Below are positions 2,234-51,327 of a DNA stretch of 64,000 nucleotides, one piece after another (the first letter of the stretch is position 1; each line of letters starts with the position of its first letter). The notes under the pieces are model-generated. The model made no database searches and was not told where the DNA came from. It was given only the letters and a program-made list of their open reading frames with translations. The position numbers and the translations under genes were made by a program. The DNA comes from Flavobacteriales bacterium (GTDB taxonomy: Bacteria > Bacteroidota > Bacteroidia > Palsa-965): positions 17,503 through 81,502 of the forward strand of contig JBEIPA010000022.1 in NCBI GenBank assembly GCA_040377305.1, given 5' to 3'.

Positions 2234-2998
2234 ATGCGTATCACATTCCTCGGCACCGGTACTTCAATGGGCGTTCCTGTTATCGGATGCGGCTGTGAAG
2301 TGTGTACGTCGACAGATCCACAAGACAATCGCTTACGTTGTTCTGTTCTCGTTGAACACAACAACCGGAAAATTGTAATCGACACCGGACCCGATTTTCG
2401 CCAGCAGATTCTTCGCGTAGGAGTGAAGCATCTCGACGCTGTTGTGTTTACACACGAGCACAAAGATCACATGGCCGGACTGGATGAAGTCCGTGCCTTC
2501 AATTTCTTCAACCAGGGCAAAGAAGTTCCCGTGTATGCAACTGAACATGTGCAACGCGCAATTCGCAGAGAGTACGCGTACATTTTCGAAACGCCTGCTT
2601 ATCCCGGGATTCCGAAAATCGATATTCGCACCATAGACGTTGCACCATTCAACGCAGAAGGAATCGAGCTGATACCGATCAAAGTATATCACCACTTACT
2701 TCCCGTTCTCGGTTTTCGAATGGGTGGATTCGTTTACATCACCGATGCGAATCGAATTGACGAAGAAGAAAGAAAAAAAGTCCGCGGCTGCGATGTACTC
2801 GTGTTAAACGCATTGCGTCGCGAGCCGCACATTTCTCATTTCACACTGCAGGAAGCAATCGATCTGGTTGCCGATCTCAAACCGAAGCAAGCGTACTTCA
2901 CGCACATCAGTCACCAGATGGGAAAACACGAAGATGTGGAAGCTGAGTTGCCGGAGAATATCCGGGTTGCGTATGATGGAATGCAAGTAAATCTTTAA
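2234..2998 (+). CDS. MBL-fold metallo-hydrolase (PhnP-like phosphodiesterase)
   Basis: MRITFLGTGTSMGVPVIGCGC, IDTGPDFRQQ, THEHKDH metal motif, THISH. Start moved to ATG 2234 because the ORF-track extension crosses repeat DNA. Confidence 0.92.
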   Translation: MRITFLGTGTSMGVPVIGCGCEVCTSTDPQDNRLRCSVLVEHNNRKIVIDTGPDFRQQILRVGVKHLDAVVFTHEHKDHMAGLDEVRAFNFFNQGKEVPVYATEHVQRAIRREYAYIFETPAYPGIPKIDIRTIDVAPFNAEGIELIPIKVYHHLLPVLGFRMGGFVYITDANRIDEEERKKVRGCDVLVLNALRREPHISHFTLQEAIDLVADLKPKQAYFTHISHQMGKHEDVEAELPENIRVAYDGMQVNL

Positions 2999-3013: not shown

Positions 3014-6000
3014 GTGAAGAGGATGTTAAGACAGTTTTTTTTGGTTATAACGGCAATTGTCATTGGTTCAGTTCAAATGAATGCGCAAGCACAGTTTTGG
3101 GGAACTACTTCGAAAGGCGGGGAGTACGGTGCCGGAACAATATTCAGAACGGATGGGACAGGAAACAATCCTGTCGTGTCGCATTCGTTTTTCCAGATCG
3201 AAGGTCATCAGCCTCATTATGCTAAACTGTTAGAAGGTACAGATGGAAAGTTGTACGGCGTCACCAACTACAAAGGGAAATTTGATTTGGGTGTACTCTA
3301 TCAGTATGATCCCGTAACCGGGGTATATGTAAACAAATTTGACTTCGACGGTGTGTTGAACGGGGCTCATCCTCAAGGTTCGTTGATGCAGGCTACGGAT
3401 GGTTTAATTTATGGTATGACTTGGGGCGGCGGAAGTTTTGGATTAGGCGTCCTTTTTCGTTTTGACCCTGTAACCGGAATCTTCACAAAACTTATTGATT
3501 TCAGTGGAACGGCAAATGGTGCAAATCCAAGAGGCCACTTGCTACAGGCTTCCGATGGAATGATGTATGGCGTAACTCAGGGTGGGGGGACAGTAGGCGC
3601 AGGCGTTCTGTTCAGATTTAATCCAGTTACCGCAGTATTGACTGTCCAAACGAATTTTATGGGAATTTCAAATGGATCTCAACCACTCAGCGGATTGATT
3701 CAGGCTCTCGATGGAATGTTATACGGTGTTACATGCAACGGAGGCACCTACAACGACGGAGTGCTTTTTCAGTTTAATCCCGTTACCAGCGTGTATTTTA
3801 AGATGAGAGATTTTGCGGCACCAAGTCATGGAGAGGCACCCCAGGCTACGTTGGTACAGCTGCCCAATGGAAGGTTTTACGGAACGGCAACAACGGGTGG
3901 CGGATTGGGCTCAGGTTGTATCTATGAATTTAGTCTTGTAGATTCTTCTATCACTATCAGGGCAAACTTCACGAGCGGGTTGAACGGAAGTGGTCCTAAA
4001 ACAGCTTTGCTTTTAGCAAGCGATGGTATGATGTATGGAACTGCCGTTTCGGGAGGCTTAGGGGCACAGGGAACACTCTTCCGTTTTGACCCGACGACAT
4101 TTGCACTTACAAACTTGAGGAACTTCACTACCGGTGCATCGGGTTGCGGACCGTATGGATACTTGATGCAGGCAACAAATGGATTGTTGTATGGACTCAC
4201 AGTCGATGGAGGAAGCGTACTCAATCATAATGGAGTGATGTATTCTTATAATATCTCAACTTCGACGTACACCAAAATCCTGGATTTCGGCCAGGCTCCC
4301 ACCGGCAATTCTCCGGAGCGTGGATTGATGACAGCGTCGAACGGAAAATTTTATGGAATGGCGCGACTTGGCGGAAGGTTCTATAATCACGGTGTAATTT
4401 ATGAGTACGATGCAGCCACAAATGTATTTGATACCATCAAAAATTTTGACGATGTGCTTTCGGGCAGGGATCCCCAAGGTCTGCTAACAGAATCGTACGA
4501 CGGATTTTTGTACGGTGTAACGCGACAAGGAGGTGTAAATAGTTTTGGTGTTTTGTTTCAGATTGATCCGGTAACGCACGCATTCGTCAAGAAACACGAC
4601 TTTTCAGCTTCAACGGGCATTGCACCTTCTGGTTCTCTTGTAGTAGGTGCGGATAACTTGCTTTACGGTGTTGCGGGATCCGGAGGTGCAAACAATCAAG
4701 GGGCTCTTTTCCGTTATGATCCGGCTACTTCAGTTTATTCGCTTATATACAGTTTCAGTACTGCAGTATCAGGCCGCGACCCTTTGGGTTCATTGTGTCT
4801 CGCACCAGACGGATTTTTTTATGGAGCAACCAATGGCGGTGGGGCCAATGGCCTCGGAACAATTTACCGCTTCAATCCGATAACACTTGCGCTTACAGTA
4901 GTGTACCATTTCTCTACCGGTTCAGGTGGATATGGGGAAGTAGATCATTTGATCCCATCCCAAAATGGGAAAATGTACGGAATGACTAATTCGGGCGGAC
5001 TGAACAACATGGGTGTCATTTTTAGTTTTAATCCTGTAACGCTTACCTACACTCCGGAATTCCATTTTGACGGCGTTGCTCATGGTGCTTATCCTAATGG
5101 AAGTTTAATGGAAGCTTCGGACAACAATCTTTACGGAATGACCGCGCGCGGAGGAACCTTGGACTACGGAACGATGTTCAGGTTTGACCCTGTGTCCGGA
5201 ATCTGCACGAGATTAACTGACTTCACTGGTCTTAACGGACAATCACCCCGGTTCTCTTCGCTGCTGGAGGCTCCGGTTAATATTCAGTTGAGTGTTAGTG
5301 ATACATTTTATTGTCCGGGCGATACATTCACTATTGGTTATACATTATCCGGCGCATTTAATAGTGGTAACGTCTTCACGGCGCAGTTATCGGATGGCAA
5401 CGGTTCGTTCTTCCAACCAATTACAATCGGAGCAATCACATCCTCTGTTCCCGGAAGCCTCTTGTGTACGTTGCCTGCGAATAGCCTGCACGGAACGGGT
5501 TATCGAATCCGGATTTCATCGTCGACACCTTTACTGAGTGGTGCCGATAACGGATTTGATCTTACCATTTCAAATCCGTTGACAGTAACGGTATCTGATT
5601 CAGTAATTTGTTTAGGCGATACTGCCGGAATATTTGCTTCGGGAATGGATAGCTACTCCTGGTTACCCATAGCATCAACTTCAGATTCGGTGTTCGTTAT
5701 GCCGTCAGTTTACACGCAATACACTTTAACTGCGACGGATTCTTCAACGGGATGCGTATTGCACGATACTGTTGGTATTGTAGTCAATCAGCTGCCTAAT
5801 GTTATGGTAGCTGCTAACGACACCACGTTATGTATTTATGACAGCGTGCTTCTGGTTGGGTCAGGAGCAGACACTTATTTGTGGCCCGCATTTTCTTTTT
5901 CAGGCGATTCGCTGGTGGATGCGCCTGTTGTTACAACAGTTTATCTGCTTCTGGGCACAGATACCAACGGTTGCGTCGATTCTGCGCAGATCTCGGTACA

Positions 6001-7486
6001 GATTCTATCACTTCCGGTGATCAATGTTTCTGCTAGTGACACTTCGCTTTGCCAGGGCCAATCTGTAACTCTCTTTGCATCCGGTGGTCACGACTATTCT
6101 TGGTTACCAGGGAATGACACAACAACGCAAGTGACCGATACATTGTTAACGACTGTGACTTATTCAGTGAGTGGGTCTGATACCATCACGGGTTGTAGTA
6201 GTCTGTCGGTGCTTACAATCGTAGTTTTCAGTATTCCACAGCTAAGCGCAACAATTGATAATGTTGCAGGATGCAACCAGTCTAATGGCAGTCTGACCGG
6301 TGCTGTAATTAACGGAACACCTCCTTATTCAACTGAATGGACTCCAGGTAACGTTACAACGTTGAACTATTCAGGAATCGCTTTTGGAAGTTACGTTTTG
6401 GTAGTGAATGATTCTGTTGGCTGTACAGATACACTTACGATTGCATTAGGGGATTCCTGTGCATTTGTCTGGCCGGGTGATGCGAATGAAGACGGGACTG
6501 CAGACAATCTCGATATTCTTGCCATTGGAATTGCGAACGATTCAACAGGTGTTGCGCGCGTGAATCCAACCACAGTTTGGATTGGACAAGATGCTATTGA
6601 CTGGAATCAGAATTTCGCTTCTGGTGTTAATTTCAAATATGCCGATTGTGATGGAAACGGATTGGTAGAACCTGCCGACACAACTGCGGTTATTCTTAAT
6701 TATGGTCTTACGCACATCATGCGAAGTAGTAATCCAGCGTGGCAGGTGAGCGCACCGGAACTTTCTGTAGTGATTTCTGATGATACAATCGGTTCCGGAA
6801 TGGCAGCATTTATGGACATATACCTGGGATCTGCGTCGACAGTCAGCGATAGCACGTACGGTGTGGCATTCACGATCAACTTCGATCCATATCTTATTGA
6901 TCAAACTTCACTGAATATCGACATGTCGGGTTCATGGATAGATTCACAAGGCAACATGATTGGTGTCCTACTTAATTCAACGCAGTTTCCCGGAACTGCA
7001 CAGATCGGAATTACGCGACTGAATCACACAGATACTTCTGGCTATGGATTTCTATGTAGGATTTATTTCGAAACCACGGATTCATTAACAGGCACGGGGA
7101 CAAGTGCACTTTCGTTTATCAGCCTGAGCAATCCAGTATTGCAGAGTAGTTCTCAGATTTTGCTGCCGGTTAATGCGGCACTTGATTCGATGTTTATTAT
7201 CGATAGCTTAGTCTATGTTGGTGTTCCTGAAACGAACTTGCCCTCAGTAAACATCTATCCTAACCCTACATCTGGAGAATCATTCGTGGTTTTCCCTTCG
7301 GAATACAATGGACAGCAGCTACAGCTCAAGATATATGATCCTTCAGGTCGGGTTGTATTTGCGAATTCAGTGATTGCTGGTCAATCCAACGTGCTTTTCG
7401 CTGATGGATTTGCTTCAGGTATTTATCTCGTAGAAGCTGTTTTTTCAGACAATACACGGGCAGTTGTGCGATGGATCATCGAATAA
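3014..7486 (+). CDS. Large T9SS-secreted protein: 14 GloVer-type beta-propeller repeats, Ig/SprB-like repeats, dockerin-like and cohesin-like modules, type A CTD
   Basis: Signal peptide; 14 units of DGxLYGxTxxGG...GVLFxFDP; VWPGDANEDG...ADCDGNG Ca-binding pair; C-terminal IYPNPT...SGIYLV. Confidence 0.85.
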   Translation: MKRMLRQFFLVITAIVIGSVQMNAQAQFWGTTSKGGEYGAGTIFRTDGTGNNPVVSHSFFQIEGHQPHYAKLLEGTDGKLYGVTNYKGKFDLGVLYQYDPVTGVYVNKFDFDGVLNGAHPQGSLMQATDGLIYGMTWGGGSFGLGVLFRFDPVTGIFTKLIDFSGTANGANPRGHLLQASDGMMYGVTQGGGTVGAGVLFRFNPVTAVLTVQTNFMGISNGSQPLSGLIQALDGMLYGVTCNGGTYNDGVLFQFNPVTSVYFKMRDFAAPSHGEAPQATLVQLPNGRFYGTATTGGGLGSGCIYEFSLVDSSITIRANFTSGLNGSGPKTALLLASDGMMYGTAVSGGLGAQGTLFRFDPTTFALTNLRNFTTGASGCGPYGYLMQATNGLLYGLTVDGGSVLNHNGVMYSYNISTSTYTKILDFGQAPTGNSPERGLMTASNGKFYGMARLGGRFYNHGVIYEYDAATNVFDTIKNFDDVLSGRDPQGLLTESYDGFLYGVTRQGGVNSFGVLFQIDPVTHAFVKKHDFSASTGIAPSGSLVVGADNLLYGVAGSGGANNQGALFRYDPATSVYSLIYSFSTAVSGRDPLGSLCLAPDGFFYGATNGGGANGLGTIYRFNPITLALTVVYHFSTGSGGYGEVDHLIPSQNGKMYGMTNSGGLNNMGVIFSFNPVTLTYTPEFHFDGVAHGAYPNGSLMEASDNNLYGMTARGGTLDYGTMFRFDPVSGICTRLTDFTGLNGQSPRFSSLLEAPVNIQLSVSDTFYCPGDTFTIGYTLSGAFNSGNVFTAQLSDGNGSFFQPITIGAITSSVPGSLLCTLPANSLHGTGYRIRISSSTPLLSGADNGFDLTISNPLTVTVSDSVICLGDTAGIFASGMDSYSWLPIASTSDSVFVMPSVYTQYTLTATDSSTGCVLHDTVGIVVNQLPNVMVAANDTTLCIYDSVLLVGSGADTYLWPAFSFSGDSLVDAPVVTTVYLLLGTDTNGCVDSAQISVQILSLPVINVSASDTSLCQGQSVTLFASGGHDYSWLPGNDTTTQVTDTLLTTVTYSVSGSDTITGCSSLSVLTIVVFSIPQLSATIDNVAGCNQSNGSLTGAVINGTPPYSTEWTPGNVTTLNYSGIAFGSYVLVVNDSVGCTDTLTIALGDSCAFVWPGDANEDGTADNLDILAIGIANDSTGVARVNPTTVWIGQDAIDWNQNFASGVNFKYADCDGNGLVEPADTTAVILNYGLTHIMRSSNPAWQVSAPELSVVISDDTIGSGMAAFMDIYLGSASTVSDSTYGVAFTINFDPYLIDQTSLNIDMSGSWIDSQGNMIGVLLNSTQFPGTAQIGITRLNHTDTSGYGFLCRIYFETTDSLTGTGTSALSFISLSNPVLQSSSQILLPVNAALDSMFIIDSLVYVGVPETNLPSVNIYPNPTSGESFVVFPSEYNGQQLQLKIYDPSGRVVFANSVIAGQSNVLFADGFASGIYLVEAVFSDNTRAVVRWIIE

Positions 7487-7503: not shown

Positions 7504-7764
7504 CACCGATGCGAATCGAATTGACGAGGAAGAAAGAAAAAAGTTCGCGGCTGCGATGTACTCGTGTTAAACGCATTGCGCCGCGAGCCTCACATTTCTC
7601 ATTTCACACTGCAGGAAGCAATCGATCTTGTGGCCGATCTCAAACCGAAGCAAGCGTACTTCACGCACATCAGTCACCAGATGGGAAAACATGCCGACGT
7701 TTCAAAAGAACTTCCTTCCAATATTTTCCTTGCACACGATGGATTAACCATTGAAGTGAACTGA
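7504..7764 (+). pseudogene. Orphan second copy of the 3' end of the MBL hydrolase gene
   Basis: About 190 bp nearly identical to 2740-2930, with a 1-nt deletion in an A run, then an alternative C-terminus ADVSKELPSNIFLAHDGLTIEVN*. Confidence 0.9.
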
Positions 7765-8959: not shown

Positions 8960-9078
8960 AAAAACACCCTGCAGGAGTTAAACGCTTGCAGGGTTAAGTA
9001 AGAAAAACACCCTGCAGGAGTTAAACGCTTGCAGGGTTAAGTGAGAAAAACACCCTGCAGGAGTTAAACGCTGGGTTA
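8960..9078. repeat. Three tandem 43-bp REP-like palindromic units
   Basis: CACCCTGCAGGAGTTAAACGCTTGCAGGGT begins at 8965, 9008 and 9051; the third copy is truncated. Confidence 0.9.
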
Positions 9079-9093
9079 TAAAATCCTGTTGCA

Positions 9094-19050: not shown

Positions 19051-20970
19051 TTACTGTACCACAACACGTGTAGTTGCAGTTGATTCACCAGTTGTAACAG
19101 TGATCAGATAAACACCAGCTTCGAGGTTGTATGTGCTCATTTGGATGTTGTTTGAACCTGAGTTCATGGTGTATTGCTGTGATGAAACTGTTTCACCAAG
19201 CATGTTCACCAGGTTAACAGTTACTTTCTCGCTGTTATTAAGTGTGATATTTACATTCAACACATCAGTCGCCGGGTTCGGATATGCTCCGATTGATCCG
19301 AATGATGCTGCAGCTTCTTTCACGCCAACAGGCAATGTAAATTCTGATTCATCAAAATCAACATCACTGATGTAGTAGTGATCGAATGGAGTAGTGGTGT
19401 TGTGCGAATTGTCGCGATCCACTGAGTTAGTTGATGGAACACTATATGTGCTGCCACTAATCAATGCAAGATTGGAGTTGTAGTGCCAGTATGCATCATC
19501 GGAGAATGTGAACTGTTTCTTCGCTGTCTTCATCATAGTAGTCCAGTCAACACCCACACCATACATGTTCGGGTATGCGTTCTCTCCACCTGCAATTGCA
19601 GGATCAGTATCAACCCACATGTAGAAGATATGATCGCGGCCTGGGCTTACAGAAGCCTGCAAACGCGCATCCAGATCATAAGCAGCAGAACCATCAGAGA
19701 ATGGCGACTGTGTAGTTGTTGCACTAGTGAGCAAGGAATCAATCAGGACAGCGTCCCAGGTGTTTGCTCCTGTTGTGTAAACATCATAGATGTAATGTGT
19801 AGTAACACCGTTCGGAACCGCGAAGAAGCTCAGTGAATCGTTGTTATCAGAGAAACCGCTTTCAATCGTGCAGATGATGTGAAGCTGGTTATTGTGATCT
19901 ACAACAATATCCGAACCATTGCTCTGAGAGAACCATGGCTTAACGTCGCCATTCGAATTATAGGCGAATAGGTGGTCGTTGATTACCGGAATTGAAGTGA
20001 AGTCGAATGGAGCCCAGGCTGCTGACCAGTTGTCGCCACCATCTGTTGTGCTGTAAACAATAGGGTTGAAGCTGCGTGTTGGAATTGTAGAAGCAGCTGC
20101 TTGTACTCCGAAGAATACACAGTAACCATTCTGCCCGTTTGCGGAGAAGGAGAGGTGCGTGTTCTGGTAAGCGTCGGTTGCGCCTGCACCATCTGTGTGG
20201 AATGTAGGCTTAATCGAATCCATAGTCCACGTAACCTGAGTTCCATCCCAGCTTCCTTTGTTTAAAGAAGCACCACGGTAGGCACTGCCTGCAACGTCAT
20301 CGTCGGCGAGAAGTGCACCTGTTACCCATACTGTGCTGTCGTTGTATGAAGCCATGTCAATACGTGGGAATGAGTTCAGACTTGCTGATGCAACGCCCGT
20401 ACCTGTGTTTCCGAAATTCGCTGCAATCGGAGCAGCCTGAAGGTAATAACCACCCCAGCCAGATCCAGGAGTATATGGACCTGCAATTGCCCACCATGCA
20501 TTTGAAATGTTGGTGTTTCCAACTCCGTTAAGAATCGCTCCGGAAGGGTAACGGAACAATTGAACTCCATCGTTGTCGAAGTACATAGAATCCCATGAAA
20601 CTCCATCATTCGATGTCCATGTGCCCTGGATGTAACCGTTATTAACGCCGGCTGGAGACCAGTCTGTTGAAATACGGTGCGTGAACAGTGCAATTCCAAG
20701 AGCCTGATTCGACGTCATACAATTCGACTGCGATACAAGCAACGTTAAAGCATTGCGTGAACTCGAAAAGTGAGTTCCTGTCATTTGTGCAGATGGGTTC
20801 TGGCTATTACGCTGTGTGTGCGCATCAGCGTAGAAACTGCTTTGTGCAGGATCTTCAGAACGACTGCCATCAAGTTTTAAATCGGGTTTGAGCGGCGTCA
20901 GCTGGGGCGACTGTGCGAATGCCACAAATGCTGAAGTGATGCCGATTGTTAAGAGTAATCCTTTTTTCAT
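19051..20970 (-). CDS. T9SS type A CTD secreted protein (twin 1)
   Basis: Signal peptide, YSTTDGGDNW BNR-like motif, AYPNPATD...AGVYLI CTD; paralog of 21056-22975. Confidence 0.85.
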   Translation of the reverse strand: MKKGLLLTIGITSAFVAFAQSPQLTPLKPDLKLDGSRSEDPAQSSFYADAHTQRNSQNPSAQMTGTHFSSSRNALTLLVSQSNCMTSNQALGIALFTHRISTDWSPAGVNNGYIQGTWTSNDGVSWDSMYFDNDGVQLFRYPSGAILNGVGNTNISNAWWAIAGPYTPGSGWGGYYLQAAPIAANFGNTGTGVASASLNSFPRIDMASYNDSTVWVTGALLADDDVAGSAYRGASLNKGSWDGTQVTWTMDSIKPTFHTDGAGATDAYQNTHLSFSANGQNGYCVFFGVQAAASTIPTRSFNPIVYSTTDGGDNWSAAWAPFDFTSIPVINDHLFAYNSNGDVKPWFSQSNGSDIVVDHNNQLHIICTIESGFSDNNDSLSFFAVPNGVTTHYIYDVYTTGANTWDAVLIDSLLTSATTTQSPFSDGSAAYDLDARLQASVSPGRDHIFYMWVDTDPAIAGGENAYPNMYGVGVDWTTMMKTAKKQFTFSDDAYWHYNSNLALISGSTYSVPSTNSVDRDNSHNTTTPFDHYYISDVDFDESEFTLPVGVKEAAASFGSIGAYPNPATDVLNVNITLNNSEKVTVNLVNMLGETVSSQQYTMNSGSNNIQMSTYNLEAGVYLITVTTGESTATTRVVVQ

Positions 20971-20999
20971 GTCGTTTTCGTTGATGAGACTCTAAGTTA

Positions 21000-21036
21000 A
21001 AAAGAAACCCCGACAATCCGTAGATGTCGGGGTTCT
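21000..21036 (-). terminator. Intrinsic terminator between the twin genes
   Basis: AACCCCGACA-loop-TGTCGGGGTT with an A-rich flank. Confidence 0.7.
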
Positions 21037-21055
21037 GTATTGTTAACAGGAACGA

Positions 21056-22975
21056 TTACTGAACTACAACGCGTGTAGTAGCAGTAGAAGTACCAGTTGA
21101 TACTGTGATCAGGTAAACACCCGCTTCCAGGTTGTACGTGCTCATTGAAAGGTTGTTAACACCTGCATTGAGGCTGTGCTGCTGTGAAGAAACTGTTTCT
21201 CCAAGAACGTTTGTCATCGCAACAGTTACTTTTTCGTTGTTGTTCAAAGTAACGTTGAGGTTCAACACGTCAGTAGCAGGGTTTGGATAAGCCGCAACTG
21301 TTCCGAAAGAAGCTACTGCCTCACCGATTCCGATAGCGAGCGTGAACTCAGACTCATCGAAAGTTACGTTATCAAGGTAGTAGTGATCGAACGTAGTAAG
21401 TGTGTTGTGTGAGTTGTCGCGATCTGTAGAGTTAGATGAAGGCACTTTGTAAGTGCTTCCGCTCACAAGCGCAAGGTTTGAGTTGTAGTGCCAGTATGCA
21501 TCATCAGAGAATGTAAACTGTTTAGTAGCAGTCTTCGTCTGAGCTGTCCAGTCGATACCAACACCAAAAAGGTTAGGGTATGCGTTTTCTCCACCAGCGA
21601 TTGCAGGATCTGTATCAGCCCAGAGGTAGAAAATGTGGTCACGGCTAGGGCTAACAGAAGCCTGAATACGTGCATCAAGGTCATAAGCAGCAGAACCGTC
21701 AGAGAAAGGAGACTGGGTTGTTGTTGCGCTTGTCTTCAAAGAATCAATAAGCGTTCCAGACCATGAGTTAGTTGCTTGTGCAGTTGTGTGTACATCCCAG
21801 ATGTAGTGAACGTTGTCGTTACGTGTCCAGGTGTATCCGAGTGAATCATCATCATCAGAAGAACCCCACTCAACTGTGCAGATGATGTGAAGGTTACCGT
21901 TGTTGTCAACTACCATGTCAGAACCATTGCTCATAGAGAACCAAGGCTTAACAGAACCGCCAACAGCAGCAATTGCAATTGGAGCTGAAGCAAATACTGT
22001 AGAGTAATCGTAAGGAGCCCAAACTGAAGACCAGGTTGTACCACCGTCAGTTGTTGAGTAAACGATAGGCTGGAAACCGCGAGTCTCAGGAGTTGTAGCT
22101 GAAGCCTGAACACCGAAGAACACTGCGTAACCAACTTGTCCGTTTGCAGAGAATGCAAGGTGAGTCATTGTATAGCAATCAGTTGCACCTGCACCATCAA
22201 GGTGGAAGCTAGGCTTGATCGAATCCCATGTCCATGAAACACTTGTTCCGTTCCATTTTCCACGGTTAAGAACAGTACCACGGTATGCGCTTCCGCCAAC
22301 ATCATCATCAGCAAGAAGTTCGCCTGTTACCCATACTGTAGAATCGCTATAAGAAGCCATATCGATACGTGGGAACGAGTTAACGTTGTTAGAATAAGTT
22401 CCGGTTCCTGTGTTACCAACGTTCGGTGCGAACATTGCGTCATTCAGGAAATAACCATCCCAGGTAGATCCGCTCGTGTAAGGACCACCAACAACCATCG
22501 CAGCATTAGCAACGTTTGTGTTGCCAGTACCGTTCAGAATTGCACCAGAAGGGTAACGGAAAAGTTCTGCTCCGTTGTTATCCCAGTACATTGAATCCCA
22601 CTGCGTGCCATTCCACCAGCTAACTTCAATATATCCGCTGTTTACACCAGCAACTGACCAATCAGCTGACATACGGTGTGTGAAAGCTGCAATTCCCAAT
22701 GCCTGGTTCGCAGTCATACAGTTCGACTGAGAAACAAGAAGCGTAAGCGCATTGTATGAGCTAGAGAACATCTGACCAGAGATCTGTGTAGTTGGACCTC
22801 CACCGTTACGCTGATTAGAAGCTTCTGCGTAGAAGTTTACTTCTTGTTCTGTGTCAATTTGAGATTTGCTCGTAAGCGTCAGGTCGGGCTTCTGCACACC
22901 ATTTGCTTTCGGTGCCTGAGCGACCATAGCAAACGAAGCGGAGACTCCGATCACAAACAGTAATCCTTTTTTCAT
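21056..22975 (-). CDS. T9SS type A CTD secreted protein (twin 2)
   Basis: Same architecture and same length (639 aa) as 19051-20970. Confidence 0.85.
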   Translation of the reverse strand: MKKGLLFVIGVSASFAMVAQAPKANGVQKPDLTLTSKSQIDTEQEVNFYAEASNQRNGGGPTTQISGQMFSSSYNALTLLVSQSNCMTANQALGIAAFTHRMSADWSVAGVNSGYIEVSWWNGTQWDSMYWDNNGAELFRYPSGAILNGTGNTNVANAAMVVGGPYTSGSTWDGYFLNDAMFAPNVGNTGTGTYSNNVNSFPRIDMASYSDSTVWVTGELLADDDVGGSAYRGTVLNRGKWNGTSVSWTWDSIKPSFHLDGAGATDCYTMTHLAFSANGQVGYAVFFGVQASATTPETRGFQPIVYSTTDGGTTWSSVWAPYDYSTVFASAPIAIAAVGGSVKPWFSMSNGSDMVVDNNGNLHIICTVEWGSSDDDDSLGYTWTRNDNVHYIWDVHTTAQATNSWSGTLIDSLKTSATTTQSPFSDGSAAYDLDARIQASVSPSRDHIFYLWADTDPAIAGGENAYPNLFGVGIDWTAQTKTATKQFTFSDDAYWHYNSNLALVSGSTYKVPSSNSTDRDNSHNTLTTFDHYYLDNVTFDESEFTLAIGIGEAVASFGTVAAYPNPATDVLNLNVTLNNNEKVTVAMTNVLGETVSSQQHSLNAGVNNLSMSTYNLEAGVYLITVSTGTSTATTRVVVQ

Positions 22976-25282: not shown

Positions 25283-25319
25283 AAAATCCCTCCGCAATAC
25301 CAGCGGGGGGATTTTTTTG
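25283..25319 (+). terminator. rpsA terminator
   Basis: AAAATCCCTCCGC...GCGGGGGGATTTTTTT. Confidence 0.75.
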
Positions 25320-25329
25320 TGCCCTCAGT

Positions 25330-25444
25330 TCAACGGTCCAAGGGTTAAGCCCTTGGAGGGTATGTCCCAAATCAACCCTGCAAGCGTTTAACTCCTGCAG
25401 GGTGTCATCAACTCAACAGTCCAAGGGTTAAGCCCTTGGAGGGT
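25330..25444. repeat. REP cluster (BIME-like)
   Basis: TCCAAGGGTTAAGCCCTTGGA at 25337-25357 and 25420-25440 flank an inverted copy of the 8960-9078 unit (25374-25405). Confidence 0.85.
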
Positions 25445-25672
25445 TACGCGCGCGCACGTAATAACAACTATTTATTCAACCTCGACAACCGGTATTTAAT
25501 TCAGGGTATCCGGATGCGTTGAAAAAAAAGATGACCTACGGTCATATCGTTAATAGTGACCTAAAATATTTACAAAAGACTTGCAGGTTTGAGAAATATT
25601 TTAATTTCGTATTAAACAACTATATATTTTGATTAAAGTTTAACTGTATTCACATCTATCAAGGAAAGATTT

Positions 25673-36086: not shown

Positions 36087-39000
36087 TCAAATTCTAACCC
36101 CAACAATCGTCACATCATCCACCTGTTCCAAATCGCCTCTCCAGTTTTCGAATGTTTCCAGAATGATTTTCTTCTGATCATCCATTGACTCATGCGAAAT
36201 TGAAACGAGCAATTCCTTCAACGGCTTATACTTGAATTTTTTGCCTTTAGGACCACCGAATTGATCGGGCATACCGTCGGTCAGTGCGTAAACGCAGTCG
36301 CCTTTCTGCAGTTGGAATTCCTGCTCAGTGAAAGGAACGTTGTCTTTGTCATGTTTTCCAACCGGCATCTTATCTGCCAGCAATTCGATCATTTCCTTGT
36401 TGCGAACGATCCATACCGGATTATTTGCTCCGGCGAAAGTGAGTCGCTTATTTGCAAAGTCAAAACTGATGAGGCTGCAATCCATTCCGTCTTTCCCGCC
36501 GTCGGTGCTTCCATCTTTCGAAAGGGTATTTATTATCCGGCTTCTCGTAAAGTTCAGAATATGGGCTGGTGAAGTCTGATGCTCAAAATCTACCGCTTTC
36601 TCGAGGCAGGAAATATTCAACATGCTCATGATTGCTCCCGGAACGCCGTGACCTGTGCTATCCGCGGTTACTAAAGCAAATTGATTGTTGGATAGGAGAG
36701 AAGCCCAGTAGAAATCACCACTCACAATATCTTTTGGACGGAAGAATACGAAATGTTCAGGCAAATGAGTCCGCAATACATTATCGCTTGCCAGTAACGC
36801 ACGCTGAATTCGTTGCGCGTAATTGATGCTATCGATAATGTCCTTCTGTTTTTCTTCTACAAGATGTTTTTGTTCTACAACTTCCGCGGTTCTTTCTTCT
36901 ACGGTTTGTTCCAGTTCCTTTTGACGAACACGAAGTTGTCTCGTTCTGAATCTGAAGAATCCAACCACCGAAGCGATGATGAATAACACAGTGCCACTTC
37001 TGAACCAGGTTGTTTCCCACCACGGCGGGCGAACTTCGAATGCATATTCAAAAGGTTCACTCCACACACCACTTTGATTCATCGCTTTTACTTTGAACAC
37101 GTATTCACCGGGAGGAACGTTTCCGTAAGGTGCTTCTGTGCGTTCAGTAATTGAACTCCAGAATTCGTCAAGGTTTTCGAGCTTGTATTGGTACTTGATG
37201 TGGTTACGGCTTTGCATGTGTACGCCGATGTAGTTGAACGTAATGTTGCTATTGTCGTACGGTAAGCTTAAATGTTGCGGCAAATTATACCAAGGAGAGA
37301 TACTGTCAAATTCAATTCCACTCAGGAGAATGCCGTTCGAAAGAATGGAGTCTTTGGAAACACCACTAATAGTTTCGTTCCCTGTTGAGTCCATCGTAAG
37401 TGCCCCAAGACTAGTCCATGCAATGTTTTCTCCATAGAGTTTTAGACTTGAAACATTTACCGAAGGCGCAATTAAATCTGCTTGATCACCTTGTGGATCG
37501 TAGCAAGTAAGAAAATCTGTTCCCCACCAAATTCGTCCCTTGCTATCTTGTAAAACAGAATTGCGACGACAGTTTAAACCTAAAAAACCATCATTATAAC
37601 CGTAATTATAAAAGAGTGCCTCTTTTATGGGATTGTAATTCTCATTTTTTTCAGCTAACCTTATTAGCTGTACCCGACCAACTTTACTTAATCCTTTTCG
37701 TGTACCGAACCAAATATTTCCATCTACATCCTGCACCATGTTTAGTACCGCATTATTTGACAGGCCTTCTTTCTCTGTAAAATTGGTAAAGGATTTCCCA
37801 TCGTAACGGCACACGCCCCCGCCATTAGTGCCGAACCAAATCCCGACTTCTCCAGTCGGGACGGTTTTATCTTCTAAACCACAATAAACAAAATTATTTG
37901 ACAGGCCTTCTTCCTCCGTAAAATTGGTAAATGATTTCCCATCGTAGCGAGAGACTCCGCCCTGAGTGCCGAACCAAAAGTTTCCGGTTTTATCTTCCAA
38001 AATACTCCAAACAGTATTATTTGACAAACCTTCTTTCTCTGTAAACTTCGTGAAGGATTTCCCATCGTAACGACACACGCCTCCGCCGTAAGTGCCGAAC
38101 CAGAGGTTTCCCGTTTTATCTTCTAAAATACTCGAAACAAAATTATCTGTCAGACCTTCTTTATCTGTAAAGTTCGTGAACGATTTCCCATCGTAACGAC
38201 ACACGCCTCCGCCATTAGTGCCGAACCAAAGGTTTCCCGTTTTATCTTGTAAAATACTCAAAACAAAATTATTTGTCAGACCTTCTTTATCTGTAAAGTT
38301 CGTGAAGGACTTCCCATCGTAACGGCACACGCCCCCGCCATAAGTGCCGAACCAAAGGTTTCCGGTTTTATCTTCTAGCATACTCACAACAAGATTATTG
38401 CCCAGCCCTTCATTCTCGGTAATATTGGTAAAGGATTTCCCATCGTAGCGAGAGACGCCGCTTCCAGCTGTGCCGAACCAAAGGTTTCCGGTTTTATCTT
38501 CTAAAATACTCTGAACAAGATTATTGCCCAGCCCTTCATTATCGGTAAAATTGGTAAAGGATTTAACAAGTTTTCCATCTTCTCTTTTAAGGTCCTGTTG
38601 ATCGCTTAAAGGAATTTTTTCGCCGCGTTCAATCGCTTCCACGCGATTCCCATCGTAACGGCATATGCCCCCGCCATATGTGCCAAACCAAAGGTTTCCG
38701 ATTTTATCTTCTACAATTGCACTCACAAAATTATTTGACAGACCCTCTTTCTGTGTAAAGTTCGCGAAGGATTCCCCATCGTAACGGCACACGCCCCCGC
38801 CATAAGTGCTGAACCAAAGGTTTCCCGTTTTATCTTCTAAAATTGAGGCAACAACATTATTTGACAGGCCTTCTTTCTCGGTAAAATTGGTAAATGATTT
38901 CCCGTCGTAGCGACAGGCCCCGCTATCAGTGCCGAACCAAAGGTTTCCCGTTTTATCTTCTAAAATACTCCACACAACATTATTTGACAGGCCTTGTTTC

Positions 39001-39791
39001 TCTGTAAAATTGGTAAAGGTTTTCCCATTGTAACGACACACGCCCCCGCCATCAGTGCCGAACCAAAGGTTTCCCGTTTTATCTTCTAAAATTGCATTAA
39101 CAACATTATTTGACAGGCCTTCTTTCTCTGTAAAGTTGGTAAAGGTTTTCCCATCGTAGCGACAGACCCCACCTTTAGTGCCGAACCAAAGGTTCCCCGT
39201 TTTATCTTCTAAAATACTCCAAACAAAATTATTTGACAGACCTTCTTTCTCTGTAAAATTCGTAAAGGATTTCCCGTCGTAACGAGACACGCCCCAGCCA
39301 TAAGTGCCGAACCAGAGGTTTCCGGTTTTATCCTGTAACATTCCACGCACGTTATTATTCTTTAAACCTTGCAGCGTTTTATAAAAACAAAAATTAGCGG
39401 GGTTAACATCTTTCGACGCGGCATCTTTGGCAATAACTACTTCAGGAATTCCTGCCGGCACAACTTTACCTTTTGCAGGAACGGTCTTAGGTGTGGAGAA
39501 AGTATCTGTTCCGGGCGTGCATACTCTTGGTGTTCCAACCGGAATAACTGTTGGCTCTCCGGCAATGTGAACATTCAGATTTGTCGGAATCACTGTCGGC
39601 TCTCCAGCGGGAATAACAGTAGGCTCTCCAGCGGGGATTGTAATCGGTTTTGCAAAACTATCCGGATTCATCCAAACACCTTGCGAGTAGGTAATTTTTA
39701 ACCCGTGTGTTGATGTTTGTTCTTCCTGATCTGAGTTACAAGATGTAAGCAGGGAAATGATGGCGCAAAGAATGAATGCAGAACGGATCAT
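36087..39791 (-). CDS. Sensor phosphatase: 14 two-component-regulator propeller repeats, YYY domain, TM helix, SpoIIE/PP2C domain
   Basis: EDKTGNLWFGT repeats; YQYKLENLD; PPWWETTWF before a TM helix; PKDIVSGDFYW, ADSTGHGVPGA, DGMD, TDG, QVDDVT. Confidence 0.92.
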   Translation of the reverse strand: MIRSAFILCAIISLLTSCNSDQEEQTSTHGLKITYSQGVWMNPDSFAKPITIPAGEPTVIPAGEPTVIPTNLNVHIAGEPTVIPVGTPRVCTPGTDTFSTPKTVPAKGKVVPAGIPEVVIAKDAASKDVNPANFCFYKTLQGLKNNNVRGMLQDKTGNLWFGTYGWGVSRYDGKSFTNFTEKEGLSNNFVWSILEDKTGNLWFGTKGGVCRYDGKTFTNFTEKEGLSNNVVNAILEDKTGNLWFGTDGGGVCRYNGKTFTNFTEKQGLSNNVVWSILEDKTGNLWFGTDSGACRYDGKSFTNFTEKEGLSNNVVASILEDKTGNLWFSTYGGGVCRYDGESFANFTQKEGLSNNFVSAIVEDKIGNLWFGTYGGGICRYDGNRVEAIERGEKIPLSDQQDLKREDGKLVKSFTNFTDNEGLGNNLVQSILEDKTGNLWFGTAGSGVSRYDGKSFTNITENEGLGNNLVVSMLEDKTGNLWFGTYGGGVCRYDGKSFTNFTDKEGLTNNFVLSILQDKTGNLWFGTNGGGVCRYDGKSFTNFTDKEGLTDNFVSSILEDKTGNLWFGTYGGGVCRYDGKSFTKFTEKEGLSNNTVWSILEDKTGNFWFGTQGGVSRYDGKSFTNFTEEEGLSNNFVYCGLEDKTVPTGEVGIWFGTNGGGVCRYDGKSFTNFTEKEGLSNNAVLNMVQDVDGNIWFGTRKGLSKVGRVQLIRLAEKNENYNPIKEALFYNYGYNDGFLGLNCRRNSVLQDSKGRIWWGTDFLTCYDPQGDQADLIAPSVNVSSLKLYGENIAWTSLGALTMDSTGNETISGVSKDSILSNGILLSGIEFDSISPWYNLPQHLSLPYDNSNITFNYIGVHMQSRNHIKYQYKLENLDEFWSSITERTEAPYGNVPPGEYVFKVKAMNQSGVWSEPFEYAFEVRPPWWETTWFRSGTVLFIIASVVGFFRFRTRQLRVRQKELEQTVEERTAEVVEQKHLVEEKQKDIIDSINYAQRIQRALLASDNVLRTHLPEHFVFFRPKDIVSGDFYWASLLSNNQFALVTADSTGHGVPGAIMSMLNISCLEKAVDFEHQTSPAHILNFTRSRIINTLSKDGSTDGGKDGMDCSLISFDFANKRLTFAGANNPVWIVRNKEMIELLADKMPVGKHDKDNVPFTEQEFQLQKGDCVYALTDGMPDQFGGPKGKKFKYKPLKELLVSISHESMDDQKKIILETFENWRGDLEQVDDVTIVGVRI
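37700..39360. repeat. Intragenic near-identical ~130-bp tandem repeats
   Basis: Recurrent GTGCCGAACCAAAGGTTTCCcGTTTTATCTTCTAAAAT...ATTATTTGACAGGCCTTCTTTCTCTGTAAA units. Confidence 0.9.
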
Positions 39792-48831: not shown

Positions 48832-50043
48832 ATGTCAACGCTTCAAGGCAAAAAAGTCATCATCGGAATCACCGGCGGAATCGCAGCCTACAAGGTTCCG
48901 CTGCTCATCCGTCTGCTCATTAAAGCAGGAGCGGAAGTGCAAGTAATGATGACTCCATCTGCTCATGAGTTTGTAACACCGTTGACACTTTCTACACTTT
49001 CGAAGAAACCTGTTCTTTCAAAGTTTACCGAAGGAAACGAAGGAGTCTGGAACAATCACGTGGATCTTGGCTTGTGGGCCGATCTGATGGTGATTTGTCC
49101 GGCGACTGCGAATACGATTTCTGATCTCGTTCACGGCAAAAGCGAAAACATTCTTCAGGCGGTTTTTCTTTCTGCACGTTGTCCTGTTGCGGTTGCGCCT
49201 GCGATGGATCTCGATATGTACCAGCATCCTGCTACTAAAGCGAATCTGGATACATTGCGCGAACGTGGTACGCTCATCATTCCTCCGGGAACAGGCGAGC
49301 TAGCCAGCGGATTATCCGGAGAAGGTCGCATGGCTGAGCCGGAAGAAATATATGCGTTCATCGAGACAACTTTGGTGCATGCGAACCGTCTTTCAGGAAA
49401 GAAGATACTCATCACGGCCGGACCTACATACGAACCTATTGACGCAGTGCGTTTCATTGGCAATTTCTCTTCGGGAAAAATGGGAATTGCGATTGCAAAC
49501 GTTTTAGCGCGTCAAGGTGCCGAAGTTACACTCGTGTGTGGTCCTAGTAAGGAAAAGACTTCTGACGCGAATGTGAAGCGTATTGACGTTACCACCGCTG
49601 CGCAGATGTACGATGCATGTGTTAGCGCATTTCCTTCCTGCGATGCCGCAATTATGACGGCAGCCGTTGCCGATTTCCGTCCGAAGAATATTGCCGATAA
49701 GAAGATCAAGAAAGAAGACGGAGGAATGAGTCAGGTCGAGTTGGAAGAAACACAGGACATTCTCGCGTCATTAGGTAAGCTGAAGAAAGCTGGTCAGGTT
49801 CTTGCAGGATTTGCGTTGGAAACGGATAACGAATCTGCAAATGCAAAATCTAAACTCGAGCGTAAAAACCTCGATTTTATCGTGATGAATTCCTTGCGCG
49901 ATCAAGGTGCCGGATTCGGCACAGATACCAATAAGATTACCGTCTTTACGCGTGACGGAAAAACGCATAACTTTGATTTGAAACCGAAAAACGAGGTTGC
50001 GCAGGACATTGCTGATGTGCTGTTCACTTATCTACACAAATGA
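48832..50043 (+). CDS. coaBC: Phosphopantothenoylcysteine decarboxylase / phosphopantothenate--cysteine ligase
   Basis: GITGGIAAYK, PATAN, APAMD, ITAGPTYEPIDAVRFIGNFSSGKMG, GFALET. Confidence 0.97.
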   Translation: MSTLQGKKVIIGITGGIAAYKVPLLIRLLIKAGAEVQVMMTPSAHEFVTPLTLSTLSKKPVLSKFTEGNEGVWNNHVDLGLWADLMVICPATANTISDLVHGKSENILQAVFLSARCPVAVAPAMDLDMYQHPATKANLDTLRERGTLIIPPGTGELASGLSGEGRMAEPEEIYAFIETTLVHANRLSGKKILITAGPTYEPIDAVRFIGNFSSGKMGIAIANVLARQGAEVTLVCGPSKEKTSDANVKRIDVTTAAQMYDACVSAFPSCDAAIMTAAVADFRPKNIADKKIKKEDGGMSQVELEETQDILASLGKLKKAGQVLAGFALETDNESANAKSKLERKNLDFIVMNSLRDQGAGFGTDTNKITVFTRDGKTHNFDLKPKNEVAQDIADVLFTYLHK

Positions 50044-50942
50044 AAAAAGTCATTGTTTTCGCTTTAGTGCTGTTGTCTGCGATTCGTATGAATGCGCAGG
50101 AGCTGAATTGCATGGTGCAGGTGGTTTCTCCGCAAATTCAGGGAACAACTGAGAAAAGGATTTTGGAGAATCTCCAGAAAGCCGTTTTCGAGTTCATGAA
50201 TAACACGAAATGGACCAGCGACATTTATTCGATTGAGGAGCGTATCAGCTGCAACATGATGATCAACGTTGTGGAAAAGTTGGGTACGGATGAATGGAAA
50301 GCCACAATTCAGCTTCAGTCAACGCGCCCTGCATTCAAATCATCTTACAATACGGTTCTACTCAACCATAACGACGCAGACTTCAATTTCCGTTATGTCG
50401 AGTTCCAGCCAATGGATTTTACAATCAACCAACACTTCAGTAACCTTACCTCGGTACTCGCTTATTATGCATACGTCATTATCGCAATGGATTACGACTC
50501 GTATTCTTTGAAAGGTGGTCAACCATGGTGGTCGAAAGCACAAACGATTGTGGCCAACGCACAGAACGCTCCGGAGAAAGGCTGGAAGTCCTCCGAAAGC
50601 ACAAAAAATCGGTACTGGTTCGTGGAGAACATGCTACAGCCGTTGTATGAGCCGCTTCGTGTTTGCATGTATAAGTATCATCGTCTTGGTTTCGACTTAA
50701 TGTACCAGGATGTTGAAGCAGGTCGCGCTGCATGTCTCGAAGCATTGCAGGGATTGGAAGCTATTCACAATCAGCGTCCGCTTTCCTTTCCTATGCAGGT
50801 GTTCTTCAACGCGAAGACAGATGAAATTGTGAAACTGTTTTCAGGTGGAACCACCGAGGAGAAAGGGAAGATTGTGCCGTTGTTACAGAAGATCGATCCG
50901 GGTCACGGTATACAATACCAGAAAATCAATCAGGCCCAATAA
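50040..50942 (+). CDS. porD: DUF4835 family protein (T9SS component PorD)
   Basis: AQELNC, EFMNNTKWT, NLTSVLAYYAY, YHRLGFD, FFNAKTDEI; follows coaBC. Confidence 0.85.
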   Translation: MKKVIVFALVLLSAIRMNAQELNCMVQVVSPQIQGTTEKRILENLQKAVFEFMNNTKWTSDIYSIEERISCNMMINVVEKLGTDEWKATIQLQSTRPAFKSSYNTVLLNHNDADFNFRYVEFQPMDFTINQHFSNLTSVLAYYAYVIIAMDYDSYSLKGGQPWWSKAQTIVANAQNAPEKGWKSSESTKNRYWFVENMLQPLYEPLRVCMYKYHRLGFDLMYQDVEAGRAACLEALQGLEAIHNQRPLSFPMQVFFNAKTDEIVKLFSGGTTEEKGKIVPLLQKIDPGHGIQYQKINQAQ

Positions 50943-51025
50943 AACCTTCAAGGTTTTAAGTTGATCAAATGCAATCTCGTTAATTTTCGGGTATAGTCAT
51001 GATTGTGATCAAACCTTAAAGGTTT
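50941..51025. mobile_element. Short non-coding element bounded by AAACCTTnAAGGTTT palindromes
   Basis: AAAACCTTCAAGGTTTT (50941-50957) and AAACCTTAAAGGTTT (51011-51025) sit between two copies of the porD 3' end. Confidence 0.55.
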
Positions 51026-51034
51026 AACCGGAGT

Positions 51035-51073
51035 CACGGTATCCAGTACCAGAAGATTAACCAGGCCCAGTAA
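51035..51073 (+). pseudogene. Displaced duplicate of the last 13 codons of porD
   Basis: Encodes HGIQYQKINQAQ* like 50904-50942, with 6 synonymous differences. Confidence 0.85.
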
Positions 51074-51077
51074 ACAG

Positions 51078-51268
51078 GTATGAGGAATGTGGGTCGAGGA
51101 ATGAGGGATGAAGAGTTAGATTCTAGCAAACCATTTGTGAACTCATAGAATCCACTTATCTACTTTACCGTTTTTAAAATTCCGTTCCATTGGAAAACTA
51201 CTTTCTATTGGTATTTCCGCATTCCACATACCCCATGCCCTGTCCCTCATCCCGCGTTCCGCATCCTT
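51078..51268. repeat. Inverted pair of heptamer tandem arrays
   Basis: Left gtatgag gaatgtg ggtcgag gaatgag ggatgaa; right gcattcc acatacc ccatgcc ctgtccc tcatccc gcgttcc gcatcct. Confidence 0.65.
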
Positions 51269-51327
51269 GATTTTCCTAACTTCGGCACAGTTTTGGATTC
51301 CAACCATCCATACCTACTGCTGATAAC

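Follow-up and report, generated by a model that had tools for sequence, protein, structure and literature searches.

Two recoded ends of porD around a hairpin element: a likely displaced gene tail and similar loci in a Flavobacteriales genome

The gene porD of this Flavobacteriales bacterium ends twice. Its last 13 codons are found in the gene and again a short distance downstream, the two copies differ by silent changes, and between them lies a decayed, inverted copy of the same tail enclosed by two palindromes. We lean towards an account in which the porD tail of a related lineage integrated by homology together with this element and thereby moved what is likely the native end downstream. 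The same kind of displacement likely took place at about twenty other genes of the genome. The features of the locus are given below as positions in the window, i.e., the whole stretch of 64,000 nucleotides that was analysed.

50040..50942, plus strand: porD, a T9SS protein of 300 aa, downstream of coaBC
50895..50942, plus strand: copy A, the in-gene porD tail (last 16 codons, the final 13 giving the copy B peptide)
50942..50956, no strand: REP palindrome 1, which overlaps the TAA stop; of the C-centred variant, in the minority in this genome
50957..51010, minus strand: spacer, a decayed end-to-end reverse complement (mirror) of copy A; core 50976-50997, matching A at 17/22 and B at 16/22
51011..51025, no strand: REP palindrome 2, the majority, A-centred variant in the genome; the displaced copy joins on at its 3' foot
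51026..51034, plus strand: decayed 5' stub of copy B, equivalent to gene positions 50895-50903, out of register or mutated
51035..51073, plus strand: copy B, 13 intact codons including the stop, in an untranslated position

The gene is recognized by the NCBIfam T9SS_PorD profile (358 bits, against a cut-off of 170). Copy A, at 50904-50942, and copy B, at 51035-51073, both encode HGIQYQKINQAQ*. They differ at 6 of 39 nt, none of them non-synonymous, as the sequence-only reading had claimed and as we find on reading the sequence again. The codon pairs, with A before B, are ATA/ATC, CAA/CAG, AAA/AAG, ATC/ATT, AAT/AAC, and CAA/CAG. The probability that six out of six random mutations are silent is 2.5e-5 if they are uniform and 3.5e-4 if transitions are weighted fourfold. 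A plain target-site duplication, already held not to fit, is rejected on these grounds: the repeats are neither identical nor randomly mutated. The in-gene copy had also been described as mostly A/T-ending, which is true of 5 of the 6 differing codons and of 7 of the 13 codons overall.

The repeat has a period of 131 nt, its ungapped part beginning at 50902 and 51033. The identity core shared by A and B covers 50902-50911 (10 nt, or 14 with one gap) and is likely the crossover point. Behind REP 2, the first 9 nt of copy B are decayed relative to the gene and the following 39 are intact; the ORF list of the window has no ORF in the insert (50943-51034). The locus is made of an intact gene followed by a dissociated 3' end that carries a piece of the homologous core. 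The presumed incoming tip encodes the same peptide as the other end and brings no ORF, toxin domain, or immunity gene. Since the PorD protein is unchanged, the event was probably near neutral, also for porD function. Directly 3' of copy B are inverted arms of 7-base purine-rich repeats (51077-51111 and 51215-51271), probably a native downstream element.

What lies between the two copies? The earlier description of an 85-bp palindromic element was nearly right: the palindromes and their inner pair (TTGATCA at 50961-50967, TGATCAA at 51006-51012) are in place, but the span from REP to REP is 84 nt. It had, however, treated the interval as just non-coding DNA with palindromes, and missed that the 54-nt spacer separating the two REPs mirrors the gene tail. 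A local match of the spacer to the reverse-complemented tail reaches 15/18 (shuffle p 0.003-0.004). Aligned end to end with 50895-50941, the spacer scores 32, against 23 for copy B, and 0.12% of 5000 shuffles reach 32 (p=0.0012). This score is reached by 3 of 3586 gene tails, porD among these, in a test devised after the match had been noticed. The spacer sequence has no other occurrence in the genome. The end of the mirror corresponds to gene position 50895, and the distance from there to the foot of REP 2 (51025) is 131 nt, exactly the repeat period. The repeat unit can be written as tail-REP-mirror-REP and the whole layout as A-REP-mirror-REP-B, with the central copy inverted and palindromes at both junctions.

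The wear of the mirror gives a relative chronology. Because it matches A better and is far more worn than B, the mirror, the REPs, and A likely arrived together. Being more decayed than B, the mirror would be older than the displacement of B. The four silent sites in its core have two A-type and two B-type bases. Its origin is hinted at by G021, a member of the genus in which the flanks of 11 doublets of this REP are mirrored in a locus-specific way (12.2 vs 7.6 of 14 positions paired, 0/5000 permutations). Mirrored flanks are not significant in the present genome (22 doublets, p=0.07), nor in G015, the nearest relative (4 loci, p=0.59). Near-perfect mirrored REP flanks are seen at the G021 loci L151, L162, and L394-L402, as if insertion inverts and copies one flank.

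Which of the two copies is the native one? The sequence-only reading had proposed that the in-gene end came with the element and that the downstream copy is the displaced native end, and this is likely on three counts. Copy B fits the codon usage of porD itself better than copy A, with a likelihood ratio of about 130 (about 5 with genome-wide usage). At asd, it is the downstream copy (YLVANKLI*), together with the element that follows it, that matches G015, which is 94% identical; the in-gene copy does not. At C11:77323, the stop of the downstream copy overlaps the ATG of the next gene. Judging from such sequence comparisons, copy B is probably the displaced native porD end, and the 3' part of copy A is likely foreign and arrived with the element. 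The proposed direction of the change, from G/C-ending to A/T-ending codons, is not general: across 13 loci there are 35 vs 30 changes (p=0.62). The closest relative of this porD has 84% protein identity among 41 genomes, 27 genomes of the genus (searched as DNA), and 80 metagenome loci. Neither the ancestral, element-free allele nor the donor allele was found among 109 other porD loci, and a duplicated tail was found at none of these 109, 100 of which have at least 300 nt of downstream sequence. The tallies over the genomes of relatives include G012, which is marked unpublished; no conclusion rests on it.

porD is not alone. When 4314 called ORFs were scanned at the codon level, there were 46 hits within 3 kb, and removing 17 paralogous genes left 29 orphan hits, some of which are false ORFs or repeats at one gene; a control with shuffled tails gave 3 hits, all whole identical genes. 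Nucleotide and peptide-seed scans of 3586 genes found the tail repeated downstream at 30 and 22 genes, vs 4 and 1 for the tail repeated upstream. We kept 22 loci by hand, those where the similarity ends at or before the stop, setting aside tandem units that share sequence after the stop. Displaced tails would concern about 0.6% of the genes (22/3586), a lower bound since two loci spotted later by eye (C7:7253 and C21:41257) are not among the 22. At the 13 loci that can be aligned at the stop, there are 70 synonymous vs 19 non-synonymous codon differences, pooled over loci hand-picked from an amino-acid-identity search that favours silent differences. A nucleotide search recovers mostly the same loci, plus older ones. 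Tandem units from the same search have 1 silent and 3 non-synonymous differences (C35) or 0 and 5 (C48), and two others, at C49:168189 and C50:1862, differ only silently. The stop codons differ in 8 of the 13 loci and 0-2 nt are common after them, so that the similarity ends where coding constraint ends. Because the similarity ends at the stop, the differences are silent, and the stop codons differ, we infer that, until recently, A and B each served as a working allele.

The differences are not evenly spread. Across loci they are denser in the 3' half (47/85 vs 32/85 codons, p=0.03), porD itself having no such gradient (3 vs 2), and at asd about 45 near-identical nt are followed by 7 differing codons out of 7. 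The payloads vary as well: several hairpin families, a RAYT-like gene, whole genes (one of 4.5 kb), or no repeat at all. In the short cases, the junction is mostly a few bases off the hairpin foot (by eye). High-copy repeats follow 9 of the 22 displaced tails vs 639 of 3564 other genes, an enrichment of about threefold (p=0.01); a stronger figure was set aside as circular, the repeat families having been chosen from the hits. Gene starts may undergo the mirror-image event, with two plausible cases, on C17 and on C7 (11 synonymous and 3 non-synonymous differences). In the latter, the first 19 codons of a presumably hemC-like gene are found again, displaced and recoded, upstream of a short tandem repeat (C7:17900-18090). 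At C11:142400-142900 (L034), a 42-codon tail is stacked in three copies, the middle one a hybrid of the outer two, which differ silently at 28 codons. An ABC-ATPase tail at C44:20000-20220 (L032) has 13 of 20 codons silently different and no non-synonymous difference, which we estimate by hand to be at least saturation.

Displaced tails are rarer or unseen in the other genomes sampled. Among foreign loci, 1 of 800 ORF ends had a duplicated tail, itself a simple repeat, so that none was counted (control, 1). A sample of G015 (370 ORFs, 392 kb) had 1 displaced or tandem tail. At L376 (contig C10 of G015), a 31-codon tail is repeated 303 nt downstream with 6 silent differences and 1 non-synonymous one.

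A related event is found within the window itself, at the gene of an MBL-fold hydrolase:

2741..2998, plus strand: in-gene tail of the MBL-fold hydrolase gene (PF12706)
3014..7486, plus strand: cargo gene between the two MBL tails, encoding a 1490-aa T9SS-secreted protein (PF18962)
7505..7764, plus strand: displaced MBL tail; its first 62 codons have 6 synonymous changes and one 1-nt gap

The porD locus had been called a cargo-free version of this event, and the MBL locus does have the same layout, with a 4.5-kb cargo. There is no hairpin at its junction. Beyond the first 62 codons, the displaced tail has a different yet natural-looking end, and the peptides of the two tails do not decide which copy is native. 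The idea of local hypermutation of copy A was dropped, both MBL tails looking like natural alleles. Elsewhere in the window, there is a 42-residue repeat array in a 1234-aa signalling gene (37500-39400) and a pair of tandem 639-aa T9SS paralogs (19051-22975).

How could such loci arise by homology? In the donor lineage, a REP would have landed at the porD stop, and the flank would have been mirror-copied as far as a second REP, so that the order became tail-REP-mirror-REP. Decay would then have affected the mirror and the first bases behind REP 2, while the coding tail changed silently only. The 131-nt unit could have been freed by recombination between the two tails of the donor, or by trimming and end-joining at the hairpin foot. 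This unit, probably as a small circle needing one crossover, would have recombined with the recipient porD in or near 50902-50911. As a result, A would combine a host 5' part with a donor 3' part, and B an old stub with a fresh host tail. No integrase would be required, as host recombination would suffice, and the silent differences between A and B likely slow the loss of the element by A-B recombination. If an old stub was joined to a fresh host tail near the core, indels are expected in the 5' part of B, which is where all four indels seen (porD, asd, MBL, C43) are located.

Some observations stand against displacement by homology. Neither the donor nor the element-free allele was found, and the identity core at porD is just 10 nt (14 with one gap). 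Identity over 10 nt is short for RecA. Furthermore, the 3'-denser differences and the asd pattern are not what one crossover with a donor of uniform divergence would give, and mosaic donors or a later allele exchange have to be added. ComEC-family and DprA genes are present in the genome; they are weak support, since they are also matched in 10 of 14 control genomes. A circle and a linear one-sided invasion fit equally. There are precedents for both. A two-step displacement model with a circular intermediate was put forward for rhs tips (Jackson et al. 2009, PMC2935791), and for V. cholerae T6SS arrays the proposal is one-sided homology (PMC5361080). In E. coli given a fragment homologous at one end, 56 of 60 clones were single-crossover duplications of 109-950 bp (PMC3240628).

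The locus could instead have a local origin, a course that we regard as unlikely and still the strongest of the single alternatives. Template switching at two REP hairpins would have produced a sense-antisense-sense mini-triplication, after which the allele of a relative would have replaced the in-gene copy alone. The A-REP-mirror-REP-B layout is that of an inverted triplication, the mirrored flanks of the G021 doublets imply that mirror copying occurs locally there, and the first 62 codons at MBL, with 6 silent changes and a gap only, are what allele exchange gives. However, copies of the same age should both decay, whereas the mirror is heavily decayed and B has 0 non-synonymous differences in 13 codons. 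The mirror is also closer to A than to B, and the mixture of A-type and B-type bases in its core implies that the lineage of B changed silently too. Finally, the similarity ends at the stop codon in 13 of 13 loci, and the test for mirrored flanks gave p=0.07 in this genome and p=0.59 at the 4 loci of G015.

The palindromes themselves could be the agents of the process. The genome contains the palindrome AAACCTTnAAGGTTT 39 times in exact form, vs 0 for a reversed control; allowing one mismatch gives 27 clusters, mostly adjacent doublets between genes, and 7 of the 27 overlap a stop codon (table read by eye). On C52, there is a RAYT-like gene of 156 aa, a Y1 transposase that scores 24.7 bits with PF01797 (above the cut-off of 23) and 63.6 bits with the REP-associated transposase model NF047646 (below the cut-off of 80). 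This gene and a four-REP cluster are flanked on one side by the end of a gene of 1127 aa and on the other by the last 35 codons of that gene again, in decayed form (C52:172400-173300, L031); there is no REP at the downstream junction. In G021, a 44% homolog is bracketed on both sides by the same REP doublets. The porD palindrome is a REP, and the RAYT is likely its cognate. No conserved 5' GTAG/CGTC tag is seen in the listed flanks of the palindromes and no CT cleavage site at 51025/51026 (both by eye). An Rfam search gave 0 matches at E<=1, and promoter and terminator scans gave 0 sites.

There are five RAYT-like matches in the genome. Another palindrome family has tandem copies in the window at 8960-9088 and 25319-25452, and it also forms an array next to a second RAYT-like gene, on C8. 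In G013 (L005), a sister-family palindrome pair with a 25-nt spacer follows the porD stop directly, without a duplicated tail, and no mirror was found in this spacer (p=0.90).

The REP palindrome is neither sufficient nor needed for displaced tails. A search for elements bounded by the palindrome, suggested by the sequence-only reading, did find one other cluster between recoded gene ends, the one with the RAYT-like gene, but only 2 of 30 clusters follow a duplicated tail. Among the matches listed in other genomes, none of 112 ORF-end/REP pairs at 97 loci has a duplicated tail beside it, many of these 97 loci being chance single matches. Moreover, 13 of the 22 displaced tails lack a high-copy repeat in the 80 nt that follow the stop. 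A REP is not required, and the suggestion that the palindrome family itself makes the duplications is not supported.

A more specific role for the RAYT is doubtful, less probable than a local origin. In this scheme, an HUH enzyme would cut and join at the REP feet, giving a closed hairpin circle whose mirror strand guides pairing with the porD tail. The end of the mirror does pair with 50895, and from there to the REP 2 foot is precisely one period; the RAYT-like gene also adjoins a REP cluster between recoded gene ends here, its G021 homolog being bracketed by doublets. TnpA-REP cleaves far from REPs, and circle excision with capture of flanks has been proposed (PMC3333891). On the other hand, an antisense arm above threshold is found at 4 of 22 displaced-tail loci vs 101 of 1974 other ends (p=0.025), the REP tallies are low (2/30 clusters; 0/112 pairs elsewhere among the matches listed), high-copy repeats are only about threefold enriched at displaced tails, and the RAYT locus on C52 has no REP at its downstream junction. 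There is also no E. coli-type C/T cleavage site at the porD junction, where this RAYT may differ in specificity.

A second hairpin family bears on guided homing. It has four copies, C10:67029(-), C11:77323(-), C11:79428(-), and C26:2338(+) (L384, L386-L388), all behind paralogs that end in a DD motif, with the displaced tail starting at the same place. These paralogs, which we take to be SpoIIE/PP2C-like, account for 45 gene ends in the genome; C7:7253 and C21:41257 are listed with the hairpin loci. The arm has CGAT opposite ATCG in three copies and CCAT opposite ATGG in the fourth, i.e., an arm base covaries with the target, the target side at C26 being decayed. Three of the four spacers pair best with the tail of their own gene, one of the three narrowly. 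Such pairing, together with the porD geometry, would allow an antisense arm to set the junction; hairpin correction could also yield the covariation. Three copies of the family in G015 and G273 have no duplicated tail (by eye), which counts against homing. The family was found in 1 of 400 other genomes of the class, in 2 of 26 other genomes of the genus (one probably by chance), and in no viral contig.

A broader version of guided homing is speculative, and we give it a small chance only. The 131-nt tail-REP-mirror-REP unit may be a self-homing cassette, a REP-capped hairpin dumbbell that carries the conserved end of a host gene. It would be excised and closed at the REP feet, by the RAYT or by recombination between its two tails, and would re-enter element-free porD alleles in other lineages, with the mirror fixing the junction and each round leaving a new, silently recoded end. 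With the DD-motif family as a second example, this would amount to an integrase-free route by which tiny repeats pass between species via gene ends.

It is very unlikely that the locus is what remains of an integrase-type island that had brought a replacement porD end on its attP and then lost its cargo. In the pattern described for icd and tRNA genes (PMC10111431), a recoded replacement end likewise comes after a short identity core, but the porD insert has no ORF, hence no integrase gene, about 22 unrelated genes with unrelated payloads are affected, and no second porD case is found in 109 loci. Copy B is also undecayed, which leaves little time for losing a whole island. Separately, a diversity-generating retroelement was rejected: the would-be template, copy B, has C, G, G, T, C, and G at the six sites, not adenines.

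The duplicated porD end is real and was not created by the assembly. Run X1, possibly the source of the assembly itself, has a 15-kb contig that covers the stretch with no difference. In run X2, from another study, a single 351-nt contig covers 50757-51106 and is identical except for one extra T at 50983, possibly an error in this one contig of depth 3. No joint bypassing the element was found in the contigs of 8 runs; X3-X8 do not cover the element and give no evidence. A chimera joining two strains is extremely improbable, even though the genome is a 60-contig assembly and the spanning support comes from assembled contigs and not from raw reads, since two separate studies each cover the element in one contig.

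Displacement by homology, if correct, has several implications. Gene-end displacement, known from polymorphic toxins, would also act on ordinary genes, about 0.6% of them here, so that lineages exchange final codons, stop codons, and 3' regions with the protein left unchanged. Each scar would hold the old allele beside the new one, and recent transfers could be read from it. The spread of REP-type repeats is described as poorly understood (PMC8266576). The displaced-tail loci offer a testable route, hitch-hiking on conserved gene tails.

Several known systems resemble parts of what is seen at porD. In the displacement of rhs tips (PMC2935791) and of V. cholerae T6SS effectors by homology-facilitated illegitimate recombination (PMC5361080), the new end likewise takes the in-frame position, and the former end comes to lie further downstream together with part of the homologous core. 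Neither involves an integrase, and a circle or one-sided homology was proposed, as in our model of porD. The present loci differ from these systems in that the genes hit are housekeeping genes in single copy and the new tip leaves the encoded peptide as it was. Homology extends over 10-45 nt at several loci, and the porD payload is an 84-nt non-coding hairpin and not a toxin-immunity pair. Hence, the porD locus works like C-terminal displacement but is not an rhs-type locus. Re-circularised fragments homologous at one end also produce partial gene duplications around foreign DNA with host enzymes alone (PMC3240628); that work concerned laboratory E. coli with identical homology and duplications of 109-950 bp, and classical HFIR deletes and does not duplicate.

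With the REP, BIME, and REPIN sequences and their RAYTs (PMC3333891, PMC8266576, PMC3116915, PMC6006769), the element shares a multi-copy intergenic palindrome, mostly in doublets, near a Y1 HUH gene. It differs in having no GTAG tag and in that its REPs are 54 nt apart around a locus-specific mirror of a gene tail. Duplicated, recoded gene ends are not described in the parts of these papers that we consulted. RAYT subclass 2.6 is mostly found in Bacteroidetes and has atypical flanking structures and repeats (PMC6006769), the supplementary figures on which may bear on the mirrored flanks; the porD repeat is a REP of an atypical kind.

Tandem inversion duplications in Salmonella reportedly have a comparable layout. 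Inverted triplication (ODIRA, PMC4689423) likewise gives a sense-antisense-sense order with palindromes at both junctions. Here, in contrast, the structure is a miniature with a 131-nt period, the junction palindromes are mobile REPs, and the outer copies are two functional, non-identical alleles. Integrase islands such as those at icd (PMC10111431) also restore the target gene with the incoming end and leave the old end downstream, whereas the present loci have no integrase, no common target gene, and many payloads. Recoded displaced tails of housekeeping genes around REP-type hairpins were not found in a search of titles and the beginnings of abstracts, with subscription journals mostly outside its scope. 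Displacement itself was already proposed for rhs tips; here it would act on housekeeping genes.
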